Source: Mytilus edulis
Taxonomy: Eukaryota
Direction: 5' to 3'
DNA: 64,000 nucleotides
NCBI RefSeq assembly: GCF_963676685.1
Contig: NC_092354.1
Coordinates: forward strand, 45,384,001 to 45,448,000
Shown: piece after piece, positions 14,718 through 47,446 of the stretch
How the letters are laid out: every line of letters begins with the position of its first letter
Numbering within the stretch: position 1 is the stretch's first letter
Translations under genes and position numbers: made by a program
The notes under the pieces: model-generated
Seen by the model: only the letters and a program-made list of their open reading frames with translations
Databases searched by the model: none
What the model was told of the DNA's origin: nothing

Positions 14718-14995
14718 GTAAGTATACAATTATTTACAACTTGTTCTACAACGGCCTGGGCAGGCTAAATTATTTTAACTGGAACATCATTTACATCCAT
14801 TTGCGATGATTCATTCTTCTTCTTATTTTCTATTGGGTGATGATTGTCTTTGCCCCACTGACTAAAGATCCTCCTCTCTCGTTACGTTTTTTCCCATTAA
14901 ATGTATGTTTATTTATGCTGTCGTGATAATACTTAATCCATGTTGTTACATTTGGGATATACAAGTTAGAGATATCCATGTCATAAATATTCTGT

Positions 14996-15445
14996 CTAAT
15001 GAAAAAATGGATACTGTCGAAAATGTAGTGTTAGTGACACCGTCTTCTTCAAAAATGATGGAGTTTTCAATTCGTCGTCCAATATAAAGAATTCAATGTC
15101 AAATATTTGCGTTTTATGTATCGATAGATAATGTGGTGATTCATATTTGTGGGTGCAGTTTCCTTTTTTATTACATTGCAATCTACGAAGTATAAGTTGT
15201 TTTTGTCCCCCATTAACAATGGAATAATCTACCAGATTGCACAAAACATACAAACTACCCATAAACGTAGTTCTATTATCCTCCTTGATGCGTATCTCAG
15301 TCAATGCCACTTTCCAAATATTGTCGAGTTGCAAAGGTTCAGACAGATGAATTTTGAAATTCGTTGAAGTATTGTCTGGGAAATAAGTTTTATTTTGCTC
15401 CGAGTCACTGTCTATGAATAAGAAGAAACTGTTGGTGGATGACAT
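14996..15445 (-). CDS. Polinton minor capsid (penton/PX) of a second, fragmentary Maverick
   Basis: YFPDNTSTNFKIHLSEPLQLDNIWKVALTEI...LYVLCNLVD...LRR...LTLHFR. Homologous to 28893-29339 and in the same position after the integrase. Confidence 0.85.
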   Translation of the reverse strand: MSSTNSFFLFIDSDSEQNKTYFPDNTSTNFKIHLSEPLQLDNIWKVALTEIRIKEDNRTTFMGSLYVLCNLVDYSIVNGGQKQLILRRLQCNKKGNCTHKYESPHYLSIHKTQIFDIEFFILDDELKTPSFLKKTVSLTLHFRQYPFFH

Positions 15446-15449
15446 AGTT

Positions 15450-16588
15450 TTACTGATTTTTAACATCTGATTCAGCAACCCAAGAATTGAATCGTTCCGA
15501 ATATCCCAACCACTTCACAAAATACTGAACTTGTTTGTTCCTCTTCCTTTTCTTTATGATTTTTTCAATTTCCCACAATGCATCTTCTGATTTGTTTACA
15601 GGTTGCACTTTCGAAAAATAAAAATTCCCCAGAATCCGTTGTTCCAGTAGGTCGGCCAGCTTATACATTTGAAGCCCCTGCATTTGAAAGCGTGCGTATA
15701 TCTTGAATACCTCATACGACCATTGTTCATTATAGACACGTTGAAAAGGTCTACGCTGATTCGAAATACGAACTAGTTGTCCTTTTCTATATTTATATAC
15801 ACTTTTTCTAAAGGCTTTCTTTCCTTTCTTGATAACATTAGAAGTCTTTCCTTTACGTTTCTTTTTAGGTCTCAAGTACATGTAGGCCCAGAGGTTAGCT
15901 GCGTTATCTGCATTAACATCCTTTGGTGCTATGTTATCTAGTGACCTATGTGGAGTGGCATTATATGACTTCACTAAATCCTGTAACGAATCGATGTATC
16001 TGTTTGACTTGTGTTTTGCTAAATATCTATATATCATGGTTTTTAAAGTTTTATTCAATCTTTCCACATAGTTTGCTTTCACCTCATTTAATGTAACATG
16101 ATGGTATATGTTCTTATCATTTAATAACTTTGAAATCCATTTGTTCTTAAATTCAGTACCCGCATCACTTCTAATTGTTTTAGGCGAAACTTCATTTAAA
16201 ATTATTGATAAAGCTTTCTCTACTTCTTTTCCTGTCTTATCTTTCAATAGCATCACCCAAGCAAAGCGGGTGAATACATCAACAGCCACAAGCAAGTATC
16301 TGATGCCGTCGTTCTTTGTACTTAAAGATTGCATGTCAGCTAGGTCAATATCAAGTTGTTGTTTTGGACCAGAAACAACAACCCGAGCTCTCTGAAATCT
16401 CCTTCGCACTGGCTTCTGTAAACTGTAATCATCTTGATTTTGTAGCCATTTTCGTATTTTGTGAACACCTATTTTATCATTGCCACCTCGTTTTAGCACT
16501 AGTTGTATTTTTTTTTTGCACCTTGATATGCTGCTGGTTTTGATGTATCATAATATACATTTGTTAGCGTATTTTCCTCTTGATTCAT
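15450..16588 (-). pseudogene. Polinton retroviral-like integrase with C-terminal chromodomain, frameshifted near 16510
   Basis: DIDLADM / SDAGTEF / VERLNKTLK DDE motifs and YFVKWLGYSERFNSWV chromodomain. N-terminus MNQEENTLTNVYYDTSKPAAYQG from 16588 is out of frame at an A run. Confidence 0.9.
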
Positions 16589-16589
16589 T

Positions 16590-16893
16590 TTATTGATAAT
16601 TTGTTAAAATGTCAGCAGCTTCTCTTATCATACATTCCATCAACTGTTTATTCTGGTTGTTTTCGAACCACCAGTTCCAATTGAACAATTCACTAAATTC
16701 CTTTACTTTTTCAGAGGGAATGTCGAGGTTTGCTGTATTTTTGGTAAACAAGTTGGATATTTCACTATGATCAATGTTTTGAAAAGCCTCTGCAAAATGA
16801 AACATTAATACTTCATCATCTGTGGTAGTTAAAACAATCGTGGTGGAGATGACTTGGCTCGTTATATTGGCAACCTATACATCTTTCTGCATT
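16590..16893 (-). pseudogene. Small Cys/His-motif protein upstream of the integrase, frameshifted
   Basis: CIGCQYNEPSHLHHDC lies upstream of and out of frame with the 71-aa ORF, and abuts the integrase start. Confidence 0.4.
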
Positions 16894-17222
16894 GATCATT
16901 CGACATATGCATAAAATTTCTCTTGCATAAGTGAAAACCAATTGATTCCTTATCCGAAATTTAGTTTATAATTCGTCTGACATCCCTACTTTCAATAAAT
17001 TATACTAAAATCACCCGAGGTAACCAAGACTTTTTATATCATTCTTTTCTTTTTTAATTTGTAGAGTTATCTTTCTTTTTACGTTGGTATTAAAAGATCA
17101 TTGATATCACATGATGCGTGAACAACATTCTTTACATATTTTGTAGACAATAACCAAACAAATATAAAATATAGGCGTCATGATCAAGATGTGGATGGCA
17201 TTCCTCGTATATTTAGTAAACA

Positions 17223-17864
17223 ATGGTCAAACAAAAGAAAAACACGGGGTCAAGTGCTTCAACCATCCATTTTATACTACTCTTTCCCAAGGATAGGCAC
17301 AATGGAAAGTCGGCTAAAATCAACTTAACGACAATATTACATAAAAACACAACTCGCGATTTAGTAAATAGTATACCAACAAATGCTTTGGTTGACACCG
17401 GTGCAGACATATCATGCATATCACAATCATTTTTAAATAAGATTTTCATGAGTAAACCAAATTTAAAGAAAACACACGTATATTCAGTTTTAGGTATAGG
17501 ACAACAAAAGTTGAGAGTGCTAGGAAAAGTATTGTTGACTACTAAGATAAAAGACCAATGTTTTGAGTTTGATTTTCATGTCATTGACACTTTACCACAT
17601 TCACTCATCGGTGTAGATGTTTTAGAGACGCACAATGTTACTATTGATTTATTTAGAAAATCTATGGAAATATCAGATAAATGTGCTAAAATTTGCTCAC
17701 TTGAGACTAATTTAGGTTTTGCTCGATGTATTAAATCTTGTGCATTGCCTGCCAATTCCGAGATAGTTCTACCAGTACATGTATCAAGAAGAATCCAAGG
17801 TGAGCAAGTACTATATAAACCTGTTTCGCCCAACGCTTGGCACTTCGGTGTTGTGGCATATTAA
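17223..17864 (+). pseudogene. Ty3/Gypsy pol fragment: retropepsin aspartic protease
   Basis: ALVDTGADISCIS catalytic motif and LIGVDVL flap-end motif; no RT follows. Confidence 0.85.
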
Positions 17865-20215: not shown

Positions 20216-21229
20216 AAAATGACAATAGGTTCGCAACAAATAGTGATCACCCAGGACAACCAAACAATCGTAACACTAATGTATACCCTTCTACTTTATA
20301 CTAATATTGTTTTTTCTATTTTCCCAGATATTGATATGCTAAAAGACGTAACCACCTTTTCGCCGGCCCAGCTCTGGTACCAATTATGTAATAACCATAC
20401 TGATATAGATTATTTAGAAGCCACAAATTATTTAGCTGATATCAATTTTGATCCATTCAATTATTCATTTCTTCAAACTGACTGTTTAGAAATTTTATTT
20501 AAAAATGAAGAGTTGGATATACCATATAATGATTTACCCCCCCCCCCCCCCCCCCTTTATGAGTTTATATATTTCCTATTATGAAATGTTACACAAGCAA
20601 TACATCAGACAACTTAGATACTGTCGTTAAATTTAAATTCTGTCAATCGATAAGTATATTATATTTACTATTTATTCAAAGTTTCTAATATATTAATTTT
20701 TCTTTACAATATCGCAAGAGTAAAACATTCATATAGAATCCCCCTTCATTTTTAGACTCTCCTCAAATTTCCTACCTTCAAGTGCGCGAATAAACGCGAA
20801 ATACTTGTATACAAATAAAATGAAATCATCGCTGCCATTGTGATATGTGTATAGATTATACAAAAAGAAAAAAAAAATGTCCCTTGTTTAGGCATGAAAG
20901 GGAAAATCGTTAACGTCATGGAAAGTTAACTAGATCTTAATTGAATGATATATTATAATGATCATTGTTTTTAAAATAGTCATTTAATAAAGTATCTTTA
21001 TGTACATCTGTAAATATTTGAAGGCCTTTAAATCATTGATTTATGTTATATATCCATTTAATTGTATTTTATGTTTTAATTTTTTTCATTGTGTATTTTA
21101 TTGTATTATATATATATGTATATGAAAAAAAAAATAGAAACAAAACAAAACAAAGAAAAATATTGTGTTATTATTGTTGGTTGTTTCATGGTGTTAGTAA
21201 ATTTAGATTGGTGGAACAATCTCCTTTTC

Positions 21230-22547: not shown

Positions 22548-25125
22548 GTGACTTTGCGATTTTTGCTTTTTGCTTTACTTTTGTCAACGTCAAACGCAGA
22601 TGAACAGAGAATAAATTATGGAATAATATTTCAAAATCAACCTAATATTGACTTTGCTACAGATTATTGGACACATATTTATGAAATCCCAATGTATTTG
22701 ATTGATTGTTGGTTGCTTAACGTCCAGTGGCAAATATTTCATGCATATTCAGGACGAGAACAAGTTCACAATAAATACAATAGGTAGGTTGTTGTAATAG
22801 AGGCCATCTAGGATGATGGTCAGGGAAATTAGGACTGCCACTTGAAAATGAGGGTATATTGGATAGGGACAGAAATTTTGCCTTGCAACAGGCCCCCTAC
22901 GGACCCCTCAAAGAGTTGTTGCAAAGGTTCTTAACGTGCAAAGAGCGTGGCACTCTCTTTACACGAGGCATCGGATTTAACGTCCCCTTCTGACGGACGT
23001 GACTGCGAACTTGATACATCCCGCACAGCCAAACGGACGCCCCACTTCAGCAAGCGTTTTACTGCCGGTCGGGAGAAGACCAAGTGACCATATTTCTATA
23101 CCCCAGTCACCCTTGGGGTCCATTTGTAGGAAACATTGTAGGAGGATTGTTCGGTTTAGTAACTGAAAAATCTATGAAAAAAATAGTTTCCCATATAAAT
23201 ACCTTAACATCTGAAAACAATAAAATTTCAAACGCTTAAAAACAATATGGAGGTAGTTTAGCGTCTTTTGTTTCACAAACAGAGAAAAGACTTGACAATG
23301 CAATGCAAGGTATTGAAAAAAATTATCAGGCTTTATCCTTTTTAAATACCCTTATTCAAAGAGATTTTAAAACCTAGAAGAACATTATACAGACTATTTT
23401 CAAATTCTAACAGATCAAACTCAAGATGCTAACATTTTGCAAAATTATATAATAGATTTGAAATCAGCCATAATTAATTTAGTCGAAGGACAATAATCTC
23501 CTCTTCTTCTAAAACCAAAGGTTATTCAACAAACTGTATTGGATATTCAAAATATTTTAAACGCTAACTACACTGGATACAAAGTTTTAACTTCTAATCC
23601 ACATTACTATTATAATTATGCTAAATATGTTGTTCTACAAAACAATACAAAAAACAAAATTGCATTTAGCTGTCCAATTTCTTTTAACAACTCATGGCAA
23701 ACTATTTGAAGTATATAAAATAAAATCTGTTCCTGTTCAAGTTACTACCAATACTTCTCACGCAACTCAACTTTTTGACGTACCTAGATATATGCTGATC
23801 ACGCATGATCGTAAATTTTTCACAACTCTTAACTTTTGAACAAATGAATATGTGTCAAGGTATGACTCCAATGCATTGTAATTTTAATCCTTTATTTCAA
23901 TTATCCAATACTACAGAATGTGCTTTTCATATTTTCAATAATGACAAACAGAAAATCAAAAACTTTTGTGATTTTAAATTTTTGCCTAATTCCATTTCAC
24001 CACATATTGAGCAAATATCAGACGATTCAGTTCTAATTTATCAATATGATAATTTAAATTTAATGTGTAATGATAAAAATATAACACTATCAGGTTGTTC
24101 CTTTTGTATTTTAAGGATCCCTTGTCACTGTATTTTACTTTCTAAAAATTCACATTTTGCAACAAAATTATCACTTTGTGAAAATGGAATATATGATTTT
24201 ACCAAACTCCATCCAGTTAACTTAGCAATTTTACAACACTTCTTTGATGATTCAAAAATTGAAAATATCCTTGCTACAACTTTCACTGATCCAGTTTCTA
24301 TTTCTTTACCAAACTTCACAATATACAAAAATAAAATGAATCATATTTTTGCTAAAGATGAAAAATATCACCTCAATTTAAAAAAATTCGTTACAAGAGT
24401 CAAGACACAAAATACTATATATTCCACTTTAGCCGATTCTATGGTAGATGGCCAAATTGATCTAAACTTTGAAAAATGGCCTACGACAAACGATATATTA
24501 TCATAAATTGCAATTATTATTACTTCACTTAATACAATTGTTCTTATCTGGTTATTTTATAAATTCAAAATTATAGCTGCTGCAATCGCTATATATCAAA
24601 CTGTTCAAATATCGGCTACTACACTACCAAATTTTAAATTTGACCCTTCCACAACTCAAGCACCTACTACATGGATCATTGTATTAAATTCCAATATAAC
24701 TTGGGATCATGCTGTTTTAACATTAGCTTTTACTTCTTTTTTAATGACTATTATTTTATTAGTTAAATCCTTCAAAAGAACAAATATGAATACTAGATTA
24801 TGTTTAGAAATAACAACAGGTTTCAATTGTGTTTGTATTCCAATTTATTCCATGCCTCTATGTCCAACATACTGGGATATTCATCTTCCAAACATTATTG
24901 ATAATTTATCTGTTGTAAATTACATTAGGCCAAAATTACATATATCTTATCCAAATTTTACAGTTCGATTTTACAGTTCGAAATAAAAATACTTATCTAT
25001 CCATTCAGGTACCTGAAATTATCGATCTGAACATTTTCCAAGCATGCACACTAAGGTCAATACTTAAACATCCTTTCTCTGTTTATGTAATACTACTTCA
25101 TCACAACATTAAATGTCCTATTAAA
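22548..25125 (+). pseudogene. env: F-type (class I fusion) env, interrupted by a SINE, stops and frameshifts
   Basis: Signal peptide FLLFALLLSTSNA; fusion-peptide-like PFVGNIVGGLFGLVT at ~23120 followed by heptad repeats; Cys-rich region; TM helix. Confidence 0.8.
22698..23118 (-). mobile_element. ~420-bp SINE-like retroposon with (AATC)n tail
   Basis: Four full copies in the window; absent from the paralogous env at 49270-49290. Confidence 0.9.
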
Positions 25126-25754
25126 AATGACAATAGGTTCGCAACAAATAGTGATCACCCAGGTCAACCAAACAATCGTAACACTAATGTATACCCTTCT
25201 ACTTTATACTAATATTGTTTTTTCTATTTTCCCAGATATTGATATGCTAAAAGACGTAACCACCTTTTCGCCGGCCCAGCTCTGGTACAAATTATGTAAT
25301 AACCATACTGATATAGATTATTTAGAAGCCACAAATTATTTAGCTGATATCAATTTTGATCCATTCAATTATTCATTTCTTCAAACTGACTGTTTAGAAA
25401 TTTTATTTAAAAATGAAGAGTTGGATATACCATATAATGATTTACCCCCCCCCCCCCCCTTTTATGAGTTTATATAGTTCCTATTATGAAATGTTACACA
25501 AGCAATACATCAGACAACTTAGATACTTTCGTTAAATTTAAATTCTGTCAATCGATAAGTATATTATATTTACTATTTATTCAAAGTTTCTAATATATTA
25601 ATTTTTCTTTACAATATCGCAAGAGTAAAACATTCATATAGAATCCCCCTTCATTTTTAGACTCTCCTCGAATTTCCTACCTTCAAGTGCGCGAATAAAC
25701 GCGAAATACTTGTATACAAATAAAATGAAATCATCGCTGCCATTGTGATATGTG

Positions 25755-26038
25755 ACTACTAACGGGGGTTCTTTACCCCCTACAATACCTATTATAACCC
25801 CTATATGTCGAGCCCCTAGATACACAACCTCCATCTTATATGGGGGATAACTATTATAACCCCTATATTTTAAACCCCTAGATACACAACATCCATATTA
25901 TATGGGGGATAATTAACCCCAACCTTTCCAACACCCATATAACATCCAATGATATGGGAGTTAAATAACTCCCCCGACTTTAACATTCAAATGTTAAGGA
26001 GGTTAAATGGATTTTAAATGTTATTCAAGTTTGATACA
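25755..26038 (+). repeat. Left TIR, containing a 62-bp tandem duplication
   Basis: Reverse complement of 47221-47440 apart from scattered mismatches and the extra unit (25789-25850 / 25851-25912). Confidence 0.95.
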
Positions 26039-26255
26039 TGGGGGTTATACATATTTAAATGTTATATTCTACAACATACACCATTTTAACATCCATTCAA
26101 TTCAACAGGATGATTTTGTATCCTATATTTATGTAATCTGTTATATGAAAACAAAATCACTCACCATGAACTGTAATAATATAAATAAACTTTATGTTCA
26201 TCATGAGGTTTATACATCTTTTCGATCACATAGGTAGCATTTAAAAGAAAACAGA

Positions 26256-27293
26256 ATGGACAGATATCAATGTGGTTGTTTTTCTGAAACATTTCATGAT
26301 ACTTTTACTAATACTGATCAAATTGAACACAACAACATTTGTGGACAACACCCATCACAAGAATCAGCTAAAGAAGGCCATGACAAGAAATTTAAAATGG
26401 AACAGGTTATAGGAAAAGCTCGAGAAATGTTAATGGCACAAATGGATTCTGATAATGTGGCGCATCATTTGGCAACAAGAAACGTCATAACCGTAGAAGA
26501 TAAAAACAAAGTGTTCAAGATTAAATCTAAATATATGAAAGCTGAGAGACTTTTGAAACGTGTTATTGAGTCTAACAATTCATCTCTTCACCATTTGAGG
26601 ATGGCTTTAATCAAGGCAGACCAGAAAGATCTATTGAAGTATATAAGTGAAAGAAATGAGCAATACGTAGAGTTTGATGATGATGATTTAACCAAAAGCT
26701 TGGAAGGAAGGTGTATGATTCCGTTACAAGGTGATTCGTACGTTGTTGCGAAAACTTACAACGATAAGATTCTCATAAACATTCGTAATTATCGAAAAGT
26801 AGCTGAGAAGAAATATCCCACTAAACAAGGTGTGTCGCTTACACTCTCAAGATGGCTAAAGTTGAAATCTCAAAAAGACTACATTAACAGTATTTTTCAA
26901 CTTGTAACAGATGGCGAATCGGTAGACGAAGAACTTATTCACTTAGGCGGAGGAGTGTACGTGACACTAAATTCAAAATATCCTAATGTAGACCTAAGAC
27001 ATTTCTGGAAACCTGAGGATTCGGATAAACCCGTTCCAACCAAACGTGGAATAGCATTAAATAAAATCAAATGGAACAAACTTTGTGATGTCATGACTAT
27101 TATGACTGACTTTGTTCCAGAACTTAATAATGCTATCGTGTGTGAGTATACTCACTACAATGAAATGGAACTTCAGAAATGTTCTGAATGTCATCCATTT
27201 AGTGACGAAGATGAAGAGGAAGTATCTCAAAATCAGGAGGGGGATTTTCAGATAATGAAACCCATTATCATGCATGATCATGAATCTGAATAA
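26256..27293 (+). CDS. CARD - PC4 - PC4 - Cys/His-motif protein
   Basis: aa ~48-132 follow the six-helix CARD pattern. aa ~153-212 (INIRNY...YPTKQGVSLTLSRW) and ~228-285 (VDLRHFW...PTKRGIALNKIKW) match PC4/Sub1. C-x3-H...C-x2-C at the end. Confidence 0.85.
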   Translation: MDRYQCGCFSETFHDTFTNTDQIEHNNICGQHPSQESAKEGHDKKFKMEQVIGKAREMLMAQMDSDNVAHHLATRNVITVEDKNKVFKIKSKYMKAERLLKRVIESNNSSLHHLRMALIKADQKDLLKYISERNEQYVEFDDDDLTKSLEGRCMIPLQGDSYVVAKTYNDKILINIRNYRKVAEKKYPTKQGVSLTLSRWLKLKSQKDYINSIFQLVTDGESVDEELIHLGGGVYVTLNSKYPNVDLRHFWKPEDSDKPVPTKRGIALNKIKWNKLCDVMTIMTDFVPELNNAIVCEYTHYNEMELQKCSECHPFSDEDEEEVSQNQEGDFQIMKPIIMHDHESE

Positions 27294-27693
27294 AATGGTG
27301 GTTTGACAATTTGTGAAAAGCAATGGAATTAGATGACACACTAATGACAATAATATTATGTTTAATATATTTTGCTGTTGTATTTATAAAATAAAATATA
27401 CATATATAACTATTAATGTGTTTGTGTTTTTAATTTAATTCGGTATAACTGTTGAATTATTTTGGAACAGGTAGCAATATAGTTGACGATACTCTTATTT
27501 TTAGAGAAGGGTTTTACACTTTTAGTTTTTGTTTTTGATCAATCAATGTTGATATGGTTTGTTTTTAAAGGGATTTTTATTTTCGAATTGGTACAGATTT
27601 GTAAAATTTTATAAATCATTGTTACACAGATTTAATGTTCATTTAAGTGGGTTATCATCAGAACGTTAATACACGTTTAAAACTATTGTAAAT

Positions 27694-28875
27694 TTGAACA
27701 CTATTACACCACAGAAAAACAAAATGACACAGAAGCAAAAGGAGAATTACGTTAAAAGAATATGGACAAACCCTAATCATCCTGGAGCTTTTGCTGGACC
27801 AGATAAATTATTAAAAGTTATACGTAGTGAAGGAAAATTTGACATAAGCAGAGCACATTTAAAAAAGATTTTAGCTAAAGAGGATACATATAGTGTTCAA
27901 AAACCTTCACGAAAAACATTTAGACGAAATAGAGTAGTTGTAGCAGGGTTGAATGCTCAATGGGACGGAGATTTAGCATCAATGGAAAATGTATCGAAAT
28001 ACAACTCAATGGAAAAATACAACTCGGATATTAAGTTTTTATTGATACTGATTGATATTTTTTCAAGATTTTTGATAGTTAAACCTCTAAAAGATAAAAA
28101 GAGTGACACAGTAACGTCTGCTTTAAAAGAGATTTTTAAAACGGGTAACAGGAGACCCAAAACTGTACGTTTTGATTTAGGCGGAGAATTTCAATCAAGT
28201 GTAAAAAAATATTTAAAGAAAGAAAAAATTAATGTATTTTACAAGCACAATTCTAAAATAAAAAGCAATTATGCAGAGAGAGTAATCAGAACGTTAAAAA
28301 ATCGTATTTATTCTTATTTTATGGAAAATCAAACATCTAAATACATAGATGTTCTTCAGAAATTGGTTAACAGTTACAACAACACACCTCATCAATCCTT
28401 GGGAGGGGCAACTCCTGCGTCTGTTACCAAAATAAATGAGGACGAAATAAGATATATACAATACCTAGTTAGAAAAAAAGCAAAATCTATAGAAGTAATA
28501 AAAAGGAAGAAGAAAAAACAAGTTTACAAATTCAAGATAGGAGATATTGTACGAATATCACAACTAAAAAGGGTATTTGAGAAAGGCTATCAAGAAAATT
28601 GGACATTGGAATATTTCAAAGTATCTAAAAGATTTAAAAGAGAAAACCAAGACATATATAAGTTGAAAGACACCCTTAATGACGACGTGAAAGGATCGTT
28701 CTATAGATACGAGGTACAGAAAATAGACCAATCACAGAAGAAACTGTACAAAATAGAAACTATTCTAAAAACCCGAAAGGTAGTAGGAAAAGAACAAGTA
28801 TTAGTGAAATGGTTGGGTTGGCCATCAAAATTTAATTCTTGGATTTTAAAGAAGTCGATCAAAGATATAAAATAA
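27694..28875 (+). CDS. Retroviral-like DDE integrase with chromodomain
   Basis: WDGDLASM, FDLGGEF, AERVIRTLK, YNNTPH and VLVKWLGWPSKFNSWI motifs. Confidence 0.95.
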   Translation: MNTITPQKNKMTQKQKENYVKRIWTNPNHPGAFAGPDKLLKVIRSEGKFDISRAHLKKILAKEDTYSVQKPSRKTFRRNRVVVAGLNAQWDGDLASMENVSKYNSMEKYNSDIKFLLILIDIFSRFLIVKPLKDKKSDTVTSALKEIFKTGNRRPKTVRFDLGGEFQSSVKKYLKKEKINVFYKHNSKIKSNYAERVIRTLKNRIYSYFMENQTSKYIDVLQKLVNSYNNTPHQSLGGATPASVTKINEDEIRYIQYLVRKKAKSIEVIKRKKKKQVYKFKIGDIVRISQLKRVFEKGYQENWTLEYFKVSKRFKRENQDIYKLKDTLNDDVKGSFYRYEVQKIDQSQKKLYKIETILKTRKVVGKEQVLVKWLGWPSKFNSWILKKSIKDIK

Positions 28876-28892
28876 TATGCTGTAATTGTTAG

Positions 28893-29339
28893 ATGTCATT
28901 CAAAGGCAAAATGAGTTTGATAATTGTTGTGTCTTCAGAAGATGGAAAAGGTTTATTTACCGATAACAAACCCTACGATTTCAGAGTTAAATTAAATCAA
29001 AGAATACGGTTGGATCATAATTGGGTGATCGCCATTACGGAATTTACTTCATCAGAACGTATCGATTCACATAAAAATCCTGAATTATTTATTTTTTCAG
29101 ACATATGCCAGAATAGTTTCATTGGAAATAACGAACATCCATTACTTAGAAGGACATATTTTGACAACGCAAAACAAAGAAACATTATTTACAATACTCC
29201 GTATTATATTCAGGTCAGACAGGGTGAAATACAACAAATTCATTTTTATATAAAGGATGACAAGGGACAAGATGCTTCATTTTTACAAGAGAAGGTGACC
29301 ATAACGCTTCATCTGAAAAAAAGATCCCCTTGTTCGTGA
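28893..29339 (+). CDS. Minor capsid protein (penton/PX), compact form
   Basis: FTDNKPYDFRVKL...WVIAITEF...LFIFSDIC...PLLR...IKDDKG...ITLHLKK pattern. Confidence 0.85.
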   Translation: MSFKGKMSLIIVVSSEDGKGLFTDNKPYDFRVKLNQRIRLDHNWVIAITEFTSSERIDSHKNPELFIFSDICQNSFIGNNEHPLLRRTYFDNAKQRNIIYNTPYYIQVRQGEIQQIHFYIKDDKGQDASFLQEKVTITLHLKKRSPCS

Positions 29340-29340
29340 A

Positions 29341-29838
29341 ATGAATAATTATCTAACAGATCCTCTCATCTGGAAAAGATTTCATAAAAACATGGAGGGG
29401 AATAAATTTAACGCATACAGTTACAGACGATTGAAAAGAAAAAATCAATTAGGACGGGGACTTCATGGTCGTTTTAGACATTCTTACATGATTCCTGTGA
29501 ATGTGAATGCAAACGACACCGAGACAAATTCCATCAGTACTACCATGGTATCACCTGTTGTTGCCTCAGAAGATAGGGCAACTTCAGAAATGAAGGACGT
29601 AAAAGAAAAGAAAAAAACCCATGTTAAGGTGTCGAGTATTATAAAAAGAAAAAACAAGAAAAAAAAGCTCAAAACGAAAAAGGAACGCAAACAATCAACA
29701 TCAAAAACAACCAAGAAGAGAACCAGACGAGCTTCAAAAAAGAAATTCAACAAAGACTATTACGATAACGTTTGGAGTTCAGTTTCTGTTAAAAAAAAAA
29801 AAGAAAACGATAAAATAAATTATGGCTTTTTTGAGTGA
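29341..29838 (+). CDS. Basic Lys/Arg-rich putative virion core protein
   Basis: Highly basic, has a QLGRG candidate protease site, and lies between penton and major capsid. Confidence 0.65.
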   Translation: MNNYLTDPLIWKRFHKNMEGNKFNAYSYRRLKRKNQLGRGLHGRFRHSYMIPVNVNANDTETNSISTTMVSPVVASEDRATSEMKDVKEKKKTHVKVSSIIKRKNKKKKLKTKKERKQSTSKTTKKRTRRASKKKFNKDYYDNVWSSVSVKKKKENDKINYGFFE

Positions 29839-31129
29839 AGATAATAAGGAAATTGGCCTTCCAATGGAACTTTCAATATTTGCTTCTCCCCCTAACCAAG
29901 TGGCCATAGATAAAATAACATATACAGAGGAAAGGCCAATATCTAATCTGATTAATGATTCCACACCCATTGAAATAGTAATCTCAGGAGCTGGTAATGA
30001 TTACATTGACTTGAGAAAAAGTCGTCTTTTTGTTAAATTACAAATTTTAAAAGAAGACGGATCTTACCTGCAACCAAAAGAAAAAACGGGAATTATTAAT
30101 TTACCGTTACAGAGTATGTTTTCACACATTGATGTATACATGAACAACAAATTAGTATCGGCTAATTCTAACAATTATCCATGGAAATCGTACTTCAAAG
30201 TTATACTGTCTTCGGGAAGCGATGAACAAAATTCTCAACTTCAAAGTCAGCTTTTTATGAAGGATGATGACCCTATGGATTCGTTGACATTAAATGCTGG
30301 ATATGTTAACAGATATGAATACACAAAAGAGTCTAGGACATTCGAATTAGAAAGTAATTTGATGGAAGATGCATTACTTTTGGATAAGTACTTGATTAGT
30401 GGCGTGGACATTTACATGAAACTGTTCCGTTCCAGTGCTCCTTTTTTACTGATGTCCGGAGAAGCAAAACCAAATTACAAGGTTAAAATATTAGACGTGT
30501 TCTATAGAACTGCTAGGGTTAAAGTGGATCCGGGTGTTATTTTGAATCATAGGCGTCAAATTCAAGAATCTCCAGCTAAATATTTGATTAACAGAAGTAA
30601 CGTAATACAAAATGTCATACCTCTAGGATCAACAGAATTTTACTGGGATTCTTTATTTCCGAAATCTCTACCTTCTAAAGTTGTGTTCGGACTTGTTCCT
30701 CAAAAGGCAATAAATGGTGATTATACGGCCAATCCTTTCAATTTTCAACACTTTAACATGTCATGTATTACTTTGAAAGTCAATGGTGTGGAAGTGTATG
30801 GATCACCTCTTAACATGGATTTTAGCAACAACAGAAATTACACAGCAGCATATGTAAGACTTTTTGAAATATGCGATAAATGGCAGAAGGATACAGGATT
30901 AAATATTTCTTTGAATGATTTTGGGAATGGTTATACGTTCATAGTGTTTTCCTTAGATCCTTCTGATTTCCAAGAAGATTTTCTCAATTTGGTAAAACAC
31001 GGAAATGCTCGATTAGAAATACGGTTTAGCGTACCCACAACAGAGGTTGTGAATTGCATGTGCTATTACCAATCGCAAGCCATTTTGACATGTGACGAGA
31101 CAAGAAATATAAACATAGTGGAACCATGA
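29822..31129 (+). CDS. Double jelly-roll major capsid protein (PY/hexon)
   Basis: ELSIFASPPNQ, YIDLRKSRLFVK, NNYPWKSY, NPFNFQHF and GNARLEIRF motifs; 435 aa, intact. Confidence 0.93.
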   Translation: MAFLSEDNKEIGLPMELSIFASPPNQVAIDKITYTEERPISNLINDSTPIEIVISGAGNDYIDLRKSRLFVKLQILKEDGSYLQPKEKTGIINLPLQSMFSHIDVYMNNKLVSANSNNYPWKSYFKVILSSGSDEQNSQLQSQLFMKDDDPMDSLTLNAGYVNRYEYTKESRTFELESNLMEDALLLDKYLISGVDIYMKLFRSSAPFLLMSGEAKPNYKVKILDVFYRTARVKVDPGVILNHRRQIQESPAKYLINRSNVIQNVIPLGSTEFYWDSLFPKSLPSKVVFGLVPQKAINGDYTANPFNFQHFNMSCITLKVNGVEVYGSPLNMDFSNNRNYTAAYVRLFEICDKWQKDTGLNISLNDFGNGYTFIVFSLDPSDFQEDFLNLVKHGNARLEIRFSVPTTEVVNCMCYYQSQAILTCDETRNINIVEP

Positions 31130-31563
31130 ATGCAAGAGAACTGATCGTTTTTTTAAAAGACTTTAAATGTTTAAATAAAGTATCTATCTGTATAAGTGAC
31201 ATTAATGGTTTGCCTGCTACCGTTGTGAATCACTACCCTCAACTATTTATTATCAATCCTGGAAAACATTGGTTGTGTGTATTTTTCTATGACTCTACAA
31301 AAGCTGAATATTTTGATAGTCTGGGAAAATGTGTAGAGTTTTATGGAACTAATTTAGCAAAGTTTATAAGCAACAACGCTAAAGATTGTTTTTCAATACA
31401 GAGACAATTACAGTCTAACACTTCAGATATTTGTGGACTTTATGTTGTATGTTTTGTAGTGATGAAAGTATGTTATCAATTTTCAATTTAAAATTTTAAT
31501 GATATGTTTACTGATAATGTATTTGAAAATGACCAATTCATTAAAATGTTTTTTTCTAAATAA
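31126..31563 (+). CDS. Adenain-like cysteine protease with a probable premature TAA at 31489-91
   Basis: GKHW / YFDSLG / LQ...CG catalytic motifs. The frame continues past the stop as NFNDMFTDNVFENDQFI to TAA at 31561-63. Confidence 0.88.
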
Positions 31564-31639
31564 ATATTAGATGTAAAAAAAAAAAAAAAGTTTTGTTCTT
31601 TTTACGAGGGGTCTTCTCTGATATGAATATAAAACTCAT

Positions 31640-32329
31640 ATGCGACGTATCGTCTTCATTTTAAACAAAGTCATGGAGAAGGAACACACTCTTCTTCCTT
31701 TTTCATCTCCAACCACAATATATATCTCTGGACCAACTCAAGCAGGTAAATCGATTTTTACTAAAAAACTTATAGAAAATGCTGACGTAATGTTTACCAA
31801 ACCACTGGAAAAAATTTTATATGCATATTCCGAATATCAACCATTATTTGACGACATTCAATCGTCCAACTTAATATTTCATGAAGGTCTGCCTGATAAA
31901 CAGAAAATAGAAGAATTTACTCAAGATACTCAACATTCGTTAATCGTACTGGACGATTTGATTTCTAAAGTAGTACAATCAGAGGAAGTTTTACATTTAT
32001 TCGCCGTCACTAGTCACCACAAAAAGGCATCAGTGGTCCTTATTTCACAATCTTTGTATCCTCCAGGTAAATACTCAAAAAGTATTTCCCTGAATTGTGC
32101 TAATTTTGTCTTGTTTCACAATCCTAGAGACATGCGTCAAATTGTAACGTTCGCATCACAAATACTTCCAGGAATGACTCGATATTTCTTAGATGCATTT
32201 TTGAAAATTACAAAACAGAAGTATGCATACATACTTATTGACCTCTCGCCTCATAGAGAAGACAGACAATACATGCTTAGAACGGGTATTTTTCCAGGTG
32301 ACACCTGTATAGTTTACAAACCTATATAA
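31640..32329 (+). CDS. A32/FtsK-like genome packaging ATPase
   Basis: Walker A GPTQAGKS, Walker B LIVLDD, SHH and NPRD motifs. Confidence 0.95.
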   Translation: MRRIVFILNKVMEKEHTLLPFSSPTTIYISGPTQAGKSIFTKKLIENADVMFTKPLEKILYAYSEYQPLFDDIQSSNLIFHEGLPDKQKIEEFTQDTQHSLIVLDDLISKVVQSEEVLHLFAVTSHHKKASVVLISQSLYPPGKYSKSISLNCANFVLFHNPRDMRQIVTFASQILPGMTRYFLDAFLKITKQKYAYILIDLSPHREDRQYMLRTGIFPGDTCIVYKPI

Positions 32330-32331
32330 AA

Positions 32332-32676
32332 ATGCATTCTTGTTCGTACGATCATTTGGTGATAATGAGCAGGCGAATGAGGTCAAATGCTGTGTTTCTG
32401 AAGTTTTTATACGAAGCTGGTACAAACCAACGAGTTGCAATCTTATCAAATCTGACTAAACCACAAATCAGTGTTCTATCTGAAGTAGCTTTAAATATTT
32501 ATAAAGGAGTATTCCCCAACAAACAAAAATACGTCAAGTCATTAAAACCATATAAATCCATTGTGTACCAATTGGGAACAAAATCAGTAGGAGTGCGAAA
32601 AAAGAAACAATTATTGATTCGTCATAATAAACTAATTCCTAGTTTGTTAAGACCTGTTATGGATTTTTTGCAATGA
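32332..32676 (+). CDS. Conserved small basic Polinton protein (PW-like)
   Basis: QRVAIL...LSEVALNIYKG...KKKQLL pattern; follows the ATPase. Confidence 0.7.
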   Translation: MHSCSYDHLVIMSRRMRSNAVFLKFLYEAGTNQRVAILSNLTKPQISVLSEVALNIYKGVFPNKQKYVKSLKPYKSIVYQLGTKSVGVRKKKQLLIRHNKLIPSLLRPVMDFLQ

Positions 32677-32954
32677 TGGCAAAAGAACTAGTTTTGTTAT
32701 CTAAAAGAAAATATGATGAACTTTTAAAATCTGCGTCAGAGGATAAACAAGACAAACCTACAGGAGAAATAATGGAAAACGAACATGGCGAGAAACCGCA
32801 AATTTCTAAACCCATAGAGCAAGTTCCAAACTCTGACCCAGCTGAAATGGGACGGTTCGTTGAGAAGATTAACGACGATGCGAGTGGTAAACCAGGAATT
32901 CTAGATCAACCTCCTAAGAAAATGAAAAGAAAAAATATGAAAAAAAAAACTTAA
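32673..32954 (+). CDS. Short protein resembling a PZ-like N-terminus
   Basis: MAKELVLLSKRKYDELLK; ATGA overlap with the previous ORF; may be shortened by an A-run slip at its end. Confidence 0.5.
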   Translation: MMAKELVLLSKRKYDELLKSASEDKQDKPTGEIMENEHGEKPQISKPIEQVPNSDPAEMGRFVEKINDDASGKPGILDQPPKKMKRKNMKKKT

Positions 32955-33033
32955 AATGGATATTATATTAACTTTTAATTATGTAACTTCTCATTTGTAC
33001 AATAAAAATCTTCAATAAAGGATTAATGTTAAG

Positions 33034-36000
33034 TCATTTGTTGCAACAGTAACCGAAAGGTAAAGTAGTTAAGTCATTTAACAATCTTCTCTTTGTATAT
33101 ACCATTCTGTACTCCTTTTCCTCAATCCTGTTGTATAATTTCCTTTTACATGCAAGTCGGGAAATTTTACGCGGATTGGTAGTCTTTATTGTTTTGATAG
33201 TTTTATTCACCACTACGTCACAAATAGATGAAAAATTTATTAGATCTGAATTCATCTTATTGTCTAACGAAAAACCTCTCACTTTACACTTTTCATTGCC
33301 CGATGCCAATCTGTAGGCATAATTCTTAGGTCCTCCGGCCACAAAATGTGTGATGTGTTTATCCTCAGGTGAAATTTCATTTGTTAATTGTCCTAAGTAA
33401 TTGCCAATAGGAAGTGTTTTTGAGATAATTTTATCTTTATCACAAAAGATGATCGAGTCTGTGTCTACATACAATGTGTTGTGACCCACTTGTTCCATAA
33501 CGTTGTAGAGCTTGATTCTGGCCCAACAGGTAGTAAAAGATGCTATGAAGATGTTGGTTTTAACGTCTATGGGGATAAAAGGGGTCTCGTGTACATGTTC
33601 TATTTGTATGAAATCTTTACTAATGATATGGAAATCTTTTACATCCTTCCGGGGATCTGAGAGTAGCTGAAAGAACTTATCTCCCTCGTGTTCGTGGAAA
33701 AACTCTGTTTGCCTCATATTTAAACGTTGACCAAACTTGCCCCAAAAACTATTTAAACATATTTTTGCCAAACTACGGAGTCCTGGATTCTTTTTTATAT
33801 TATCATAATCTAAATGTATTCCCTCGTGTTTTGCGTAATCAGCTATATATTCCATCTTTTCTTGATCTGTTTTACACTCCTGTGGGAAACCTGATGCTTC
33901 CTGTTTAAATTTCAAAAATAGATTGACGTAGGCATCAAAAAGGCCTCCCACACCCGTAAAAGGATCATGCTTTTTGAATTCTTTAAAATGATACACCTCG
34001 TATATTTTAAGGATTTCGTATCCTTTGGAAAGAGCCAGCTCCACTTCAGGAGTACACCATGTACCAACAATGACTCTCTCGTCATTGGTGCATGTGCAGT
34101 CGTTTTGGTTTTCATCATCGGCACACTTTTTGCAAAGTGGAAACTTTAATTTTCCATTGGAAACGTATGGTAAAACGGGATGAAAAAGACGTCTGTGGGG
34201 TAAAATCTTTACTTTAACCACCCCAAAATACTTGGAAATATCTTGAAAATTCGATGTTATGATAACTGGATGTCCTATGGGGTATTTAGCATACTTGTTG
34301 ACGCTAGGATACAAGCTGAAAAATAAAAGAAGGAAATTATCAACTAAGTAACCAAACAATGTAACATAAAAGAGTTCTGAATATACAAATGAATCAAAAA
34401 CAGTACTTATTACATTATTTTATATTACCTTGTGAAATCATAATATTCAATTGTCTCTCCTGGTTCTGCGCATTCATGGTACAGTTTAATTCCGTTAGTC
34501 CTTCCGCCATAAAAGCTATCCCTTACATTTAATCGGTCTGTAATATCTAATGTAGAAACTAATTCTCTCATTTGGTCATCTGTCGACATTAATTGATGAA
34601 ATTCGTGCTCCCAGATGCACACATACTCGTATCCTAGTCGTATCAGTTCCCTTTCTTTCTGTTTGGTCATAATATATAGTTCGGCCATCGAATGTTTTGT
34701 CTTCGGATGAGTTGTCTTTGTTCTATCATGGGGAAAGCAGGAGGGACAACCATGGAAACAACAACCTGAAATCATTAATGATAATAAGAGGGTTTACATC
34801 AATCAATGCGCCGCATTACTTTAACAATCGTTATTCAGTTGTAATAGGTGGGAATCGTTTTGATCGTCTTGAAAGAAATCGATAAATAATAAGAAAAAAT
34901 ATAATAAATTTATAAATATATAAACAATATAATAAATTTATAAATATATAAACAATATAATAAATTTATAAATATATAAACAATATAATAAATTTATAAA
35001 TAATATTGTCGCCGCCGCCTCCTATGCCCTTAATTATTTACTCACCTAAAAATTCGTATGCCGTTTTCTTTGGAGAATGGACATAACCATCTAGTCTAAA
35101 ATTCGTGCCTGGTACTTTGTGTTCTCCTCGACCATTTAGTGCGTGTTGTATGTGAATTGGTTTTCCTGACCGTCTACTACGCTCCATTGTCCATTCCAAC
35201 CATTGGATTGACACTTTACTGAAATTGTCTCTTGATACGTAACCCTCTGACGGAACTACTGCAATGGGACTTTTAACGAAAACTGTTCTTCCAATTGTGT
35301 ACGCATTAGACGCATCTATCGTTTCCTTTAATACCCATTCACCGTCAGGTAATTGCACTTGAAGTGAACCGTTCACAAATTTCGAGGGACACTTGAGATT
35401 TGTGTTCTGGGTTAAATCCGTCACACACGTTTCATATTCTTCCTCTAGGAACAGTTGCCTGTAGATGGCTTGACAGACAGAAGCAATCGTGATGTAATTA
35501 AACGGATCTATACCTTCGGCGTGCGTTATTATTTCGCCTTTTTCGTTAGTGTCTTTTACAGATGTCACGTCAATCATAATTTTACGAAACTCCATACATC
35601 CTCGCCTCAAAATATCTACATCTGATACGCAATAATTGTACATCTCCGACTGAAAGTCAAATATTTCATTTTCTTTTGAACGGTACCAATTCCAAAATAA
35701 TTGGGCTTCTTCTTCTCCCATATAATCGACTCCATAATATGATGCAGCCGGATAAGGTCCTTTATATGATTGGTGTTCTTGGGTGTTGAAGAGGTGTGGG
35801 AAGTGACCCTTCTGAAGCTCCTGAAGACCAAAGCATTGTGGAATCTTCGATAACTTCATATTGATAAAGTTGATAGAATCGAGAAATGTAAGGTCTAAGT
35901 TTTTCGAGACATGCATATAGACAATCTTTGAGCCATCGAAGATGATTTTATCGGGTTTTACACTGTGATGATCTATGAGTGCATTGAGTAGGGGGTAGTT

Positions 36001-38601
36001 GTCGAAACCTTTGGCGTTGTGTGCTATGAGAACCGTGTTTTTGTAATGGGGGGTCATGATGTGAGAGCAGAATTCGTAAGGTACGTTGTTACCTCTAAAC
36101 ACCCTCTGTCTGTAACCGCAACCATCTTTACAAGGTAAAATCCTTTTGTTCTTTTTTACTATTCTACAGTTTTCACAGCGACTCCCACAAACGTCACACT
36201 TAGAGTTTATCGTTAAATCATCGTTTTCACAAAGGGTACAAGTAGATTGCAAAACAGCAAAATTTACCTTGTGCTCATTTAGTCCACACCAAGACTGATG
36301 ACAGTTGATGCAAATTTTACAAGAGTTACATCTCGTTTTCATAGCACATTTCGTTTTACAAGGTTGGCTGGGTACGTAACCATTAGAACATTGTTCTTCA
36401 TATCTACATCTGACCTCATAACAGTTCGTACACATTTTGCATTTTTTACACCTGTCTGTTGTCGAGCATTGTTTCTCGCACGGTTCGCCGAGCAAATGAC
36501 CTTCACTACAGACCATTTGTTCATTTTGTGTTGTTTCAAAGTCGTAAAAAAAATATTTCCTCGGTTCCTTTTTACTAGAATTCCAAATAGATTTCCGCTG
36601 ATAACACAAATGGTCTCCTAATTGATATTGGAAACAATTTTTACATTTCCATTCCCCGCATCTATGTTGTTCGGGTGCTCGTTTGTTTCTTTCTAGGACT
36701 TTTTTACAAGTTTCACACTGGTAAAACCTTTCGCACATTGATTTGTCGCAATCATGGCCTCTGATGGTTTTAAGGGAGTTGTGTCTTTTATAACACGCTT
36801 CACTACGACATGTTCGGTGGCAGTCTGAACAAGTAACTTGATCGTTACTGATCTTACATTGATGACTACCGCAAACGTCACATGTTTCGCTACAGGAGTG
36901 CCTCCCCTTGTTTTTATACGGGGTTAAACAGTGCGAACAGAAATAGCCAAAACCAAAATAACCATTTATACTCCCTATGGCATCGTAATGTCCATTTCCA
37001 TCTGCATCACCCGTAAGGTACAGGTAAATGTTTTTACGTTGGGAGTTATTAGCCACACGATAAAATTTGTTGCCTAATTTTGAGGATAACACCAAAATAT
37101 TGAGGTCCAATAGGTTTTCAAAGCTATGAATGTCTCTAATGCTTAGGGGTTTGTCAGTTGGAAGATTTGCTTCTTTACATAAGGTTAATGCCATGGTTTT
37201 ACTGTAAGATTTATTATTCACAGCGGAATCACTCACGTGTTTGTAATAACTTTTGGTAGTCATGCCATGTTTCAAGACTTTTTGAAAAGTGTTCATGTTG
37301 GGGTCATCGTCTTTTGTGATCTCTCTCCATTTGTTCAGGGGAACGACTTCGCAGAGCTTTAAAAAACATCTACCAATCGCTGTTGCCATACACATTTCGT
37401 CGTTATTCGATACCTGTAATAATGACTTTTTTAGGGCAATTGAATTACGGGTCCCTTTGAGTCTTGTTATGGGTATCGTACCACTCCCACTAGGTACTGC
37501 AATGCTCCCTATTGTGACTTGCATAGCTGTATCCAAGGGTAAATTTTCGTCGGAATTTAGGACGTTTTCTACTGCATCCATGACCCTTTGCGAGTTAATG
37601 TTGGACCAGTTATCCAATGGTACGACTATCGAATTATTCAATTCGGGATGTGAAATGATAACTCTTCCGAGGTCATAGTCATTTCCTCTGGCCCTACCCA
37701 GTACGTCATCGAACATACCCCCAAGTTCGTTTTGAAGATTGCGCATTTTTTTATTTTTCCAGGTATCTTTGAATTTTACTTTGTATGTAGTCTCACGGGC
37801 TAAATTTTTGGAGAAGGTTTTCTGTCCCGACATTTGAAATAAATAAGGTAAATCTTCGTTGTCGTTACCACTCCCCCTTTGTTCGATGTCATCCATAGTC
37901 AATGTGATATTAGGGTCGATACTGTTTTGAAGGGACGTGTGTACACCTTGAATAACACTCCCACCCTCTTCAAAGTTGTAGGGGGTAGCCATGTAATTTG
38001 TCGTTATAGCATCCATGTCCATTACGTTCGCATCCACCCTTTGATTCAAGTCATCCATGGTATATACTATATTTTGGTTCAAACCATATTGAAAGTGTGT
38101 TTGTGATTGAGGGTCCATATATTGACTAGCAGTAGCTCTGTAAGTGATGTGGGAGTGACTTGTTGATGGCATATTTATGTCTTTGATATTTTGAATAACA
38201 TTAAAGTCGTTTAAAGCATCCAAATCGAAATTAATGGCTAGGTCATCTGAATTTGAAAATGTATTGATGTCATCTATAATTTGGTGAAATTCCAAATGAT
38301 CTTTCAATTCCGATGATAAGTTGAATTTAATATAACACTTTTGACATGTCAACAAAAATGATAGTCTGTCTAAAACTTGGGAGTTGTTTAAAAGGCAGTT
38401 ATCTGTAGCCCAACTTATTAAACTGTCAGCATCTGTAAATGTGTTCAATGTATATGTCAAATTGAATGACAGAAAGTGTCTGATCCTATTTTGTATCAAA
38501 GGATGATTTATTAGGTCATTGTCTAATGCCCATTGCTGCAAGTCCTCTAAAGATGTAAAATCCTTGACAATACTGTTCAAACTTGGTGATTTATGCTTCA
38601 T
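33034..38601 (-). CDS. polB: Protein-primed family B DNA polymerase, 3 exons (38601-35046, 34765-34429, 34315-33034; 1724 aa)
   Basis: GT-AG splicing restores AYEFLG/CCFHGCP and YYDFTS/LYP. ExoI YDFET, ExoII HNAKGFD, ExoIII YCVSDV, KICLNSFWGKFGQ and YVDTDS all present. Confidence 0.95.
34899..35003. repeat. 28-bp AT-rich tandem repeat in polB intron 1
   Basis: AATATAATAAATTTATAAATATATAAAC repeated about 3.7 times. Confidence 0.9.
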
Positions 38602-47440: not shown

Positions 47441-47446
47441 TATGTG

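Follow-up and report, generated by a model that had tools for sequence, protein, structure and literature searches.

Host proteins that couple a death fold to a nucleic-acid-binding domain include AIM2 (PYD-HIN), RIG-I and MDA5 (two CARDs and a helicase) and the nuclear CARD proteins SP100 and AIRE. Here we analyzed a 64,000-nucleotide stretch of the Mytilus edulis genome (contig NC_092354.1, positions 45,384,001 to 45,448,000 of the forward strand; hereafter the window), in which a Maverick, a virus-like element, encodes a protein with a CARD, two PC4 repeats and a CHCC finger (P0001). P0001 resembles the host proteins in pairing a death fold with a nucleic-acid-binding domain, where binding is predicted for P0001. 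In contrast to them, it is element-encoded and carries one CARD with PC4, whereas the host genes carry HIN, helicase or SAND. For the CARD, a viral counterpart is GIV-CARD of grouper iridovirus, a CARD-only early gene product that, according to excerpts of PMC4457926, enters the nucleus and inhibits apoptosis; Bcl2 and IAP homologues are likewise described for adintoviruses in parts of 10.1101/697771. Like GIV-CARD and herpesvirus E10, the CARD of P0001 is encoded by a virus-like element and comes without a catalytic domain. Unlike GIV-CARD, it is fused to a predicted DNA-binding module.

The remainder of the protein also has described counterparts. Human PC4, yeast Sub1 and the phage T5 PC4 homologue (type II) are homodimers, and type I PC4-like domains, as defined in excerpts of PMC7549692, hold two repeats in a single chain. 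P0001 shares the single-chain, two-repeat topology of the type I domains Pur-alpha I-II, Whirly and MRP1/2. Compared with the type II proteins, repeat 1 superposes and most contact positions are kept, but the two diverged repeats sit in one chain, repeat 1 lacks the W89 equivalent, and a CHCC finger and a CARD are added. The top viral fold match of the core (two PC4 repeats and the CHCC finger, PC4x2-CHCC) is MOSUB of a Branchiostoma lancelet adintovirus (A0A5H3CIS2; E 1.7e-9, TM 0.70 by query), which differs in being 203 aa long and in matching only this core. MOSUB is labelled beside an inverted terminal repeat in the map of Supplementary Fig. S2 of PMC8502044, as far as the available parts of that supplement go, and the main text gives 0 hits for MOSUB, PC4 or CARD. 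The adintovirus supplement maps are pictures, one of them for a Mytilus element, and their labels may be incomplete. The PC4x2-CHCC core is a widespread Maverick protein resembling adintovirus MOSUB. In bay scallop, three of five PC4 proteins have two PC4 domains and are treated as host genes, with zf-PARP as the added domain (PMC9223095, in part). P0001 differs from these in its CARD and its transposon link, neither of which appears in the available parts of that source.

The initial annotation did not know the CARD-PC4 architecture from the literature, and neither the fusion nor CARD-only Maverick genes were found in the literature searched, with subscription journals and Repbase outside the search. 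Term look-ups in the available parts of PMC9223095, PMC8905726, PMC11131425, PMC8097293 (with its supplement) and PMC10294476 returned neither. Databases already record the CARD and PC4 pair automatically. The CARD-PC4 fusion is a real and apparently undescribed architecture, made from two known kinds of viral parts.

Domain architecture of the CARD-PC4 protein

The open reading frame (ORF) runs for 345 aa without an internal stop and is intron-free. It had been described as intact and first at the left end, which holds, and as lying inside the left terminal inverted repeat (TIR), which does not: the gene begins 217 bp inward of the repeat, as the first ORF after it. In order, the protein consists of a Cys/His N-terminal extension, the CARD, an acidic linker, PC4 repeats 1 and 2, the CHCC finger and an acidic tail (Table 1). 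Only CARD and PC4 pass Pfam cut-offs, and a caspase domain is absent. An AlphaFold model of the whole protein reached a mean predicted local distance difference test score (pLDDT) of 84 from a 42-row alignment. A Foldseek search with this entire model against PDB returned nothing at E <=0.001, and fold comparison was made per domain (VIA searches).

Inspection of the CARD supports the earlier assignment of aa ~48-132 to this fold. PF00619 matches aa 50-130 with 26.4 bits (cut-off 23.9, E 7e-6). On a host-CARD profile derived solely from 23 further CARD loci in the M. edulis genome, the domain scores 39.9 bits, where the best of 1000 shuffles reaches 12.8. AlphaFold predicts six helices over aa 35-130, with pLDDT of ~86-97 in the CARD, and the model aligns with the Apaf-1 CARD at Z 13.6 (root-mean-square deviation, rmsd, 1.7 A over 89 residues). 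The CARDs of Apaf-1, MDA5, caspase-9 and RIG-I all fall at Z 13.2-13.6, compared with Z 9.7 for the best death-domain row, such that a death fold of CARD type is what the model matches. An SP100 CARD filament is also among the matches (Z 8.7), and herpesvirus E10 is a weak fold match (E 0.09).

The two predicted PC4/Sub1 domains are likewise present, as PF02229 matches in two stretches with 61 bits. When folded alone (72 rows), the PC4x2-CHCC part gives pLDDT 96 and a predicted template-modelling score of 0.90 and forms one unit. Among solved structures it matches Pur-alpha repeats I-II best (Z 11.2, 130 aligned residues, rmsd 3.9 A), with the next row at Z 8.0. A PC4 repeat compares with 1pcf at rmsd 0.8 A over 61 columns, and repeat 1 overlays PC4 at 1.0 A across 65 residues. 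The model thus bears out the proposal that the tandem PC4 acts as a single-chain unit: both repeats, each of the beta4-alpha type, lie in one chain rather than in a homodimer of single repeats, and they are predicted to pack in the Pur-alpha manner. With 13% identity to Pur-alpha and recognition by PF02229 at the sequence level, this arrangement looks like an independent duplication.

Excerpts of PMC4350104 list R70, F77, R86, W89, R100 and K101 as the ssDNA (single-stranded DNA) contacts of PC4 and report that loss of W89 abolishes ssDNA binding by the human protein. Among 35 CARD-bearing relatives, repeat 1 has an aromatic residue at F77 in 30, R86 in 33, K/R at R100 in 35 and R70 in 2, and no aromatic residue is among the six commonest at the W89 position. 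Repeat 2 has an aromatic at W89 in 34, R86 in 34 and K/R at K101 in 32. Conservation is strong at R86, R100, G102 and one aromatic position in each repeat. Because the contacts are divided between the repeats, nucleic-acid binding is likely but would be asymmetric. The C-x3-H...C-x2-C motif noted earlier reads C296-x3-H300-x8-C309-x2-C312; each ligand is kept in 31-32 of the 35 CARD-bearing rows and in 129-132 of 134 CARD-less ones. The acidic linker after the CARD was also correctly recognized; it has pLDDT 51-58 and a ratio of nonsynonymous to synonymous differences per site (pN/pS) of 0.86. Two features are new relative to the initial annotation, namely the loss of the W89-equivalent aromatic from repeat 1 and the Cys/His extension, in which CGC, HD and CGxH are kept in all 10 extension-bearing rows of a 30-row alignment (pLDDT ~50). 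Other PC4 architectures occur among the matches (P0136, P0143, P0149, P0179, P0182; P0062; P0103): four PC4 repeats joined to DEK_C, two repeats with a zinc knuckle, and two with a weakly matching C2H2.

The same CARD lineage occurs fused to PC4 or as a separate Maverick gene

A search of the M. edulis genome gave 55 matches among 77 candidates. In 15 mapped regions (14 plus the window), 11 have a CARD-PC4x2 gene ahead of the integrase, and the other 4 have a PC4x2 gene that lacks the CARD. The 11 comprise family A, that of the window's element (345-356 aa), and family B (270-272 aa); identity between their core genes is ~30-57%. The same gene order recurs in a third lineage, family O, at 3 of 6 loci fetched from metagenome contigs: L178 and L180 carry the whole module, and L181 the integrase and minor capsid gene. 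That is to say, the fusion precedes the integrase in three Maverick lineages. The named relatives, known as proteins only, derive from Mytilus species, Crassostrea angulata, Pinctada imbricata and Haliotis rubra, and public entries label family-B copies 'CASP2' or 'CARD domain-containing protein'. An ESM Atlas cluster of 61 members (PC4 in 100%, CARD in 95%, mostly Mollusca; score 0.87) is a lead only and may be P0001's own cluster.

A profile search returned 323 clusters at E <=1e-30, and Pfam finds a CARD in 11 of 78 longer proteins scanned. In a set of 196 relatives, 169 have a near-complete core; scored on a purpose-built profile, 35 of these bear a CARD and 134 do not. The figure of 35 is a lower bound, since a few rows counted as CARD-less show partial CARD-like ends by eye. 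In the PC4 tree, 32 of the 35 fall in one 45-row clade (SH-like support 97), whose CARD-less rows are mostly N-terminally cut fragments; one subclade without a CARD (P0019, P0020, P0053) branches within the CARD-bearing rows. This distribution fits one main ancient CARD-PC4 fusion. Several independent fusions, suggested by outliers outside the main clade (P0056, P0075+P0087, P0119+P0131), are not claimed: in approximately unbiased tests on a 42-row subset, joining the outliers to the main clade was not rejected (p 0.35, 0.21, 0.48). A scan of viral contigs gave 31 pattern matches and no relative.

A search with the family-B CARD places its best unfused matches in other Mavericks. In family C (C10 and C6 copies; TIRs of ~340 bp), a CARD-less PC4x2 gene adjoins one TIR, and the side of the other TIR holds a macro-like ORF, an 80-aa CARD-only ORF, a homologue of TBP and then the integrase. 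The L086 region is a related, internally deleted element with a 90-aa CARD-only ORF ahead of its TBP gene. The CARD-only ORFs (L086, L087, L088) span 80-90 aa, score 46-47 bits on Pfam, lie inside TIR-bounded elements and are sister to the family-B CARDs (support 99/88). L086 and L088 thus have the GIV-CARD layout, a CARD and no other domain, which P0001 does not. Given this split state, the CARD is useful to Mavericks without a covalent link to PC4.

TBP homologues occur in at least two Maverick families (Pfam TBP 78 bits; L086:998-1501, L088:983-1501, G000:C12:1840606-1841130), and no paper on a Maverick TBP was found in the literature search. In L086 and L088 the CARD-only ORF ends in an overlap with the TBP start codon, which suggests coupled translation. 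The macro-domain-like ORF of family C, identified by eye (L088:1658-2296, minus strand), overlaps the start of the CARD-only ORF; it matches PHROG 335, labelled phosphatase (E 2e-11), has no Pfam match, and is possibly a second anti-immune gene.

A CARD tree of 60 rows and 92 columns, in which viral CARDs are not among the rows, groups the CARD of P0001 with other Maverick CARDs and sets family A on a long stem. Naming a host donor was tried and dropped, as the tree leaves the Maverick CARDs unresolved with two long host branches. For the family-B CARD, the nearest solved structures are RAIDD, CED-3, Apaf-1 and caspase-9, and the strongest match to it outside Mavericks in this genome, L089, is caspase-9-like. 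A search for longer proteins bearing this CARD gave 8, every one a family-B relative. An [RK]G motif between helices 4 and 5 is present in 8 of 9 family-B and 7 of 7 family-O CARDs and in 0 of 16 of family A, P0001 included.

Selection was gauged by the ratio of nonsynonymous to synonymous substitution rates (dN/dS). Three family-B pairs give 0.22, 0.11 and 0.06 for the CARD, with synonymous sites near saturation in the last two; these values are similar to those of the PC4 repeats and above that of the capsid gene (0.04). Two family-O pairs give 0.21-0.23, the CARD-only ORFs give 0.19, and the family-A CARD has pN/pS 0.39 (confidence interval 0.27-0.55) with synonymous sites saturated. The CARD and PC4 modules are under purifying selection, with dN/dS of roughly 0.1-0.3 for the CARD, and the concern that the CARD might be unconstrained in sister copies does not apply.

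Three CARD-less PC4x2-CHCC matches (L023, L026, G000:C11:60557822) have no Maverick core genes within the 30-40 kb fetched; the frames of L023 and L026 are open, and the three are possibly remnants or domestication candidates. An 8.1-kb, 99.8% inverted duplication of the family-B left half on a small contig (L043-L045, G000:C2080) is either a fold-back intermediate or an assembly artefact. At L105-L107 (G000:C1:59307046-59322333), a caspase-9-like CARD exon is repeated four times with a period of 5015 bp beside an intronless Toll-like receptor-like ORF (by eye, LRR and a part resembling the receptor domain also abbreviated TIR); the remainder of the gene was not found.

The window's Maverick and its transcript-like contigs

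The Maverick context proposed for the gene holds, with TIRs, a 6-bp target-site duplication (TSD), the protein-primed DNA polymerase B (pPolB), integrase, ATPase and protease in the conserved order (Table 1). The complete element spans 25755-47440. An empty site with a single TATGTG lies at 20844-20849, in a duplicate host segment of the window. A second insertion, 99.4% identical over 21.7 kb, has another TSD, which indicates that family A moved recently; family-A insertions carry 6-bp TSDs at unrelated sites.

Table 1 Coordinates of the CARD-PC4 gene, its domains and the surrounding Maverick in the window
Feature	Position	Strand	Remarks
CARD-PC4-PC4-CHCC ORF (P0001)	26256-27293	+	345 aa, open throughout
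N-terminal Cys/His extension, aa 1-34	26256-26357	+	possible second metal site, family A only
CARD, aa 46-132	26391-26651	+	Pfam, predicted fold, shuffle control
Acidic linker, aa 133-150	26652-26705	+	7 D/E vs 2 K/R; weakly constrained
PC4 repeat 1, aa 151-222	26706-26921	+	F77, R86, R100 equivalents present; W89 equivalent gone
PC4 repeat 2, aa 223-292	26922-27131	+	W89, R86, R100, K101 equivalents present
Putative CHCC zinc site, C296/H300/C309/C312	27141-27191	+	ligands near-invariant among relatives
Acidic C-terminal tail, aa 316-345	27201-27290	+	11 D/E vs 1 K/R; low pLDDT
Transcript-like contig span over CARD-PC4 gene	25932-27355	+	inferred mRNA; run type guessed
Left TSD TATGTG	25749-25754	.	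same 6-mer at 47441-47446
Left TIR, terminus ACTACT	25755-26038	+	repeats 91-97%
Integrase, retroviral-type with chromodomain	27724-28875	+	rve E 1.6e-6 (under cut-off); Chromo over cut-off
Probable minor capsid protein	28893-29339	+	by position, size, conservation; no useful Pfam match; syntenic in families A, B, C, O
Probable major capsid protein	29822-31129	+	by position, size, conservation; syntenic; dN/dS 0.04
Probable adenain-like protease	31126-31491	+	weak PF22102, E 5e-4; synteny
A32-like packaging ATPase	31640-32329	+	Pox_A32 E 7e-4, under cut-off
pPolB, three pieces, probably spliced	33034-38601	-	PF03175 over cut-off
Second PC4 gene: hydrophobic N-terminal segment and one PC4 repeat	46493-46945	-	PF02229 37 bits
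Right TIR	47220-47440	-	inverted repeat of left
Right TSD TATGTG	47441-47446	.	matches left TSD

The family-A ends read 5'-(ACT)2//(AGT)2-3' (25755-25760 and 47435-47440 in the window; also L031-L033), the reverse of the usual 5'-(AGT)2//(ACT)2-3'; the family-A motif is not among the three given in the available parts of PMC8097293. Families B and C have AGTAG ends. The pPolB pieces are probably exons, since GT donors at the piece ends are common to families A and B, and because these donors are shared across families a broken polymerase was rejected. The piece limits are the same across copies, with apparent introns common to families A, B and O. Intact vertebrate Mavericks are reported without introns in parts of PMC8097293.

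The candidate for the double jelly-roll major capsid protein expected of a Maverick (435 aa) has no Pfam or PHROG match and is assigned by position and conservation; a PHROG scan of five window proteins gave no match. Homologues of the second PC4 gene occur in families B and O (L017 region; L178:259-708), and its location varies, from the far end in A to directly after the CARD-PC4x2 gene in B and before it in L178.

Outside the element, window segment 18720-22701 and segments 23621-25754 plus 47441-49287 form a tandem duplicate of host or retroelement sequence (98-99%), and the Maverick inserted into one of the two copies. Upstream of this tandem segment, at 12242-17864, are gag-like and protease-like ORFs. 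Two other Maverick-like remnants occupy the minus strand, an integrase and minor-capsid-like pair at 14996-16499 and two capsid-like ORFs, recognized by eye only, at 51209-52446.

Four sequencing runs were mapped to 25700-39200, two of which (X1 and X2) were chosen for holding the CARD-PC4 gene. X1 gives one 1424-nt contig over the gene at depth 29, with three small pieces elsewhere at depth ~4. X2 gives four contigs that tile 25933-27339, with two small pieces elsewhere and an unrelated contig matching 18 bases. The 5' ends agree between these independent runs (25932 in X1, 25933 in X2), core genes appear only in small low-depth fragments, and an AATAAA lies at 27390. These contigs look like mRNA made while core genes are quiet, where the RNA status of both runs is a guess and contigs cannot fix transcript ends. 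Runs holding the stretch make up 19 of 24 rows, 14 of them guessed to be RNA and none recorded as RNA among those listed.

Possible roles of the CARD and the PC4 core

Our tentative preference, which we place a little short of an even chance, is that the PC4x2-CHCC core likely serves the element by binding single-stranded or melted DNA and that the CARD is likely a decoy that dampens host CARD-dependent death or immune signalling. The core would act as an ssDNA-binding factor in strand-displacement replication, as a PC4-type transcription cofactor, or both. The CARD may have been captured long ago from a host CARD of caspase-9/RAIDD/CED-3 type, and the fusion would place it on a terminal gene apparently transcribed while core genes are quiet, such that a decoy would be present early and in latency. 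P0001 lacks an effector domain and would compete for the CARD partners of the host in the manner of viral CARD-only proteins. This role is favored because the CARD is optional and separable, its likely donor is of caspase type, its expression appears apart from that of the polymerase, and viral precedent exists. Given its divergence, the family-A CARD may engage a partner other than that of families B and O.

Several observations weigh against a decoy. A decoy needs no fusion, yet the fusion lasted across lineages that share only ~30-57% identity in their core genes, which suggests that being linked is itself of importance; a CARD made separately might also work in trans on PC4x2. The family-A CARD, lacking the [RK]G motif and a close host match (best E 0.09), would be a poor mimic, and a host partner would have to be picked from at least 150 CARD matches in the genome. 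On the side of the core, repeat 1 misses the W89 equivalent. On the side of expression, X1 and X2 were selected because they hold the gene and were only guessed to be RNA, and two certain RNA runs (6% and 18% read) have no reads on it, from animals not established as carriers.

The CARD may instead be a self-assembly handle, a possible but clearly less probable role, in which CARDs bind one another and polymerize the monomeric PC4 unit for cooperative coating, unwinding or nuclear condensates, and the host death pathway is not the target. Analogues would be the SP100 and AIRE CARDs and the arm by which adenovirus DBP forms chains. The SP100 filament among the fold matches points in this direction, as does the family-A CARD, which stays constrained while it has lost the caspase-type motif and drifts from host CARDs. 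The TBP homologue beside the CARD-only gene in sister elements and the acidic tail hint at a role in transcription, and single-chain type I PC4-like domains gain unwinding through higher oligomers, as excerpts of PMC7549692 report. Against a handle, 134 of 169 relatives score as CARD-less, families B and O retain the host-like caspase-type surface motif, and family C keeps a CARD-only gene under selection where a covalent handle is impossible.

The initial annotation had proposed that the protein arrays CARDs along displaced ssDNA as a replication-triggered death or egress switch. Such a platform would recruit a host caspase or adaptor and couple replication to death or egress, resembling AIM2 or RIG-I but encoded by the element. 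A death fold joined to a nucleic-acid-binding domain by a flexible linker suits such a switch, the fusion is ancient, with one clade taking in 32 of 35 CARD-bearing rows, and the caspase-9/RAIDD-type motif is kept in B and O; gasdermin-like genes are also described for adintoviruses in parts of 10.1101/697771. The proposal is weakened by the unlinked CARD gene of family C, by the 134 of 169 relatives that score as CARD-less and by RNA-like contigs that lack polymerase coverage. The TIR-adjacent gene looks early, whereas lysis functions are usually late, and a leaky death trigger would be costly to an element integrated in the germline in many intact copies. We regard the switch as unlikely; a decoy, the other option offered by the initial annotation, fits better. 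Equally doubtful is the broader notion of a Maverick-made, ssDNA-reading CARD platform that times death or release or senses competing DNA elements.

It is improbable, too, that the two halves are independent passengers, with a useful CARD fused for co-expression only and a core whose ligand has changed to RNA or promoter DNA or that is mainly a protein-binding cofactor. The absence of the W89 equivalent from repeat 1 across the family, the persistence of both fused and split states and the CARD-less subclade nested among CARD-bearing rows would suit this arrangement; the strong retention of R86, R100, G102 and one aromatic per repeat does not, and it overlaps with a decoy while adding no target. 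Very improbable, and largely refuted for the window copy, is a host gene situated within or beside a Maverick, be it a DNA sensor turned to host use or caspase-2 as the public labels on family-B copies would have it. The window copy is intron-free, sits between TIRs and lacks a caspase domain, with a 99.4% identical second insertion, 6-bp TSDs at unrelated sites and the same pre-integrase position in three lineages.

That several mollusc Maverick lineages keep a CARD under selection, whether fused or on its own, suggests a long-standing conflict with the caspase or innate signalling of the host. It bears on the roles of Maverick accessory genes and on whether Mavericks still meet host immunity as viruses. 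Since some mussel 'CASP2' and 'CARD domain-containing' entries are Maverick genes, they can inflate bivalve immune-gene counts. Protein-primed replication needs an ssDNA-binding protein, and the PC4x2 core, present in hundreds of sequence clusters, is a candidate for it. To our knowledge no AIM2-type sensor is known in molluscs; an ssDNA-reading CARD platform, if it proved true, would add a third death-fold design for DNA sensing to those of AIM2 and RIG-I, and one open to mollusc domestication.

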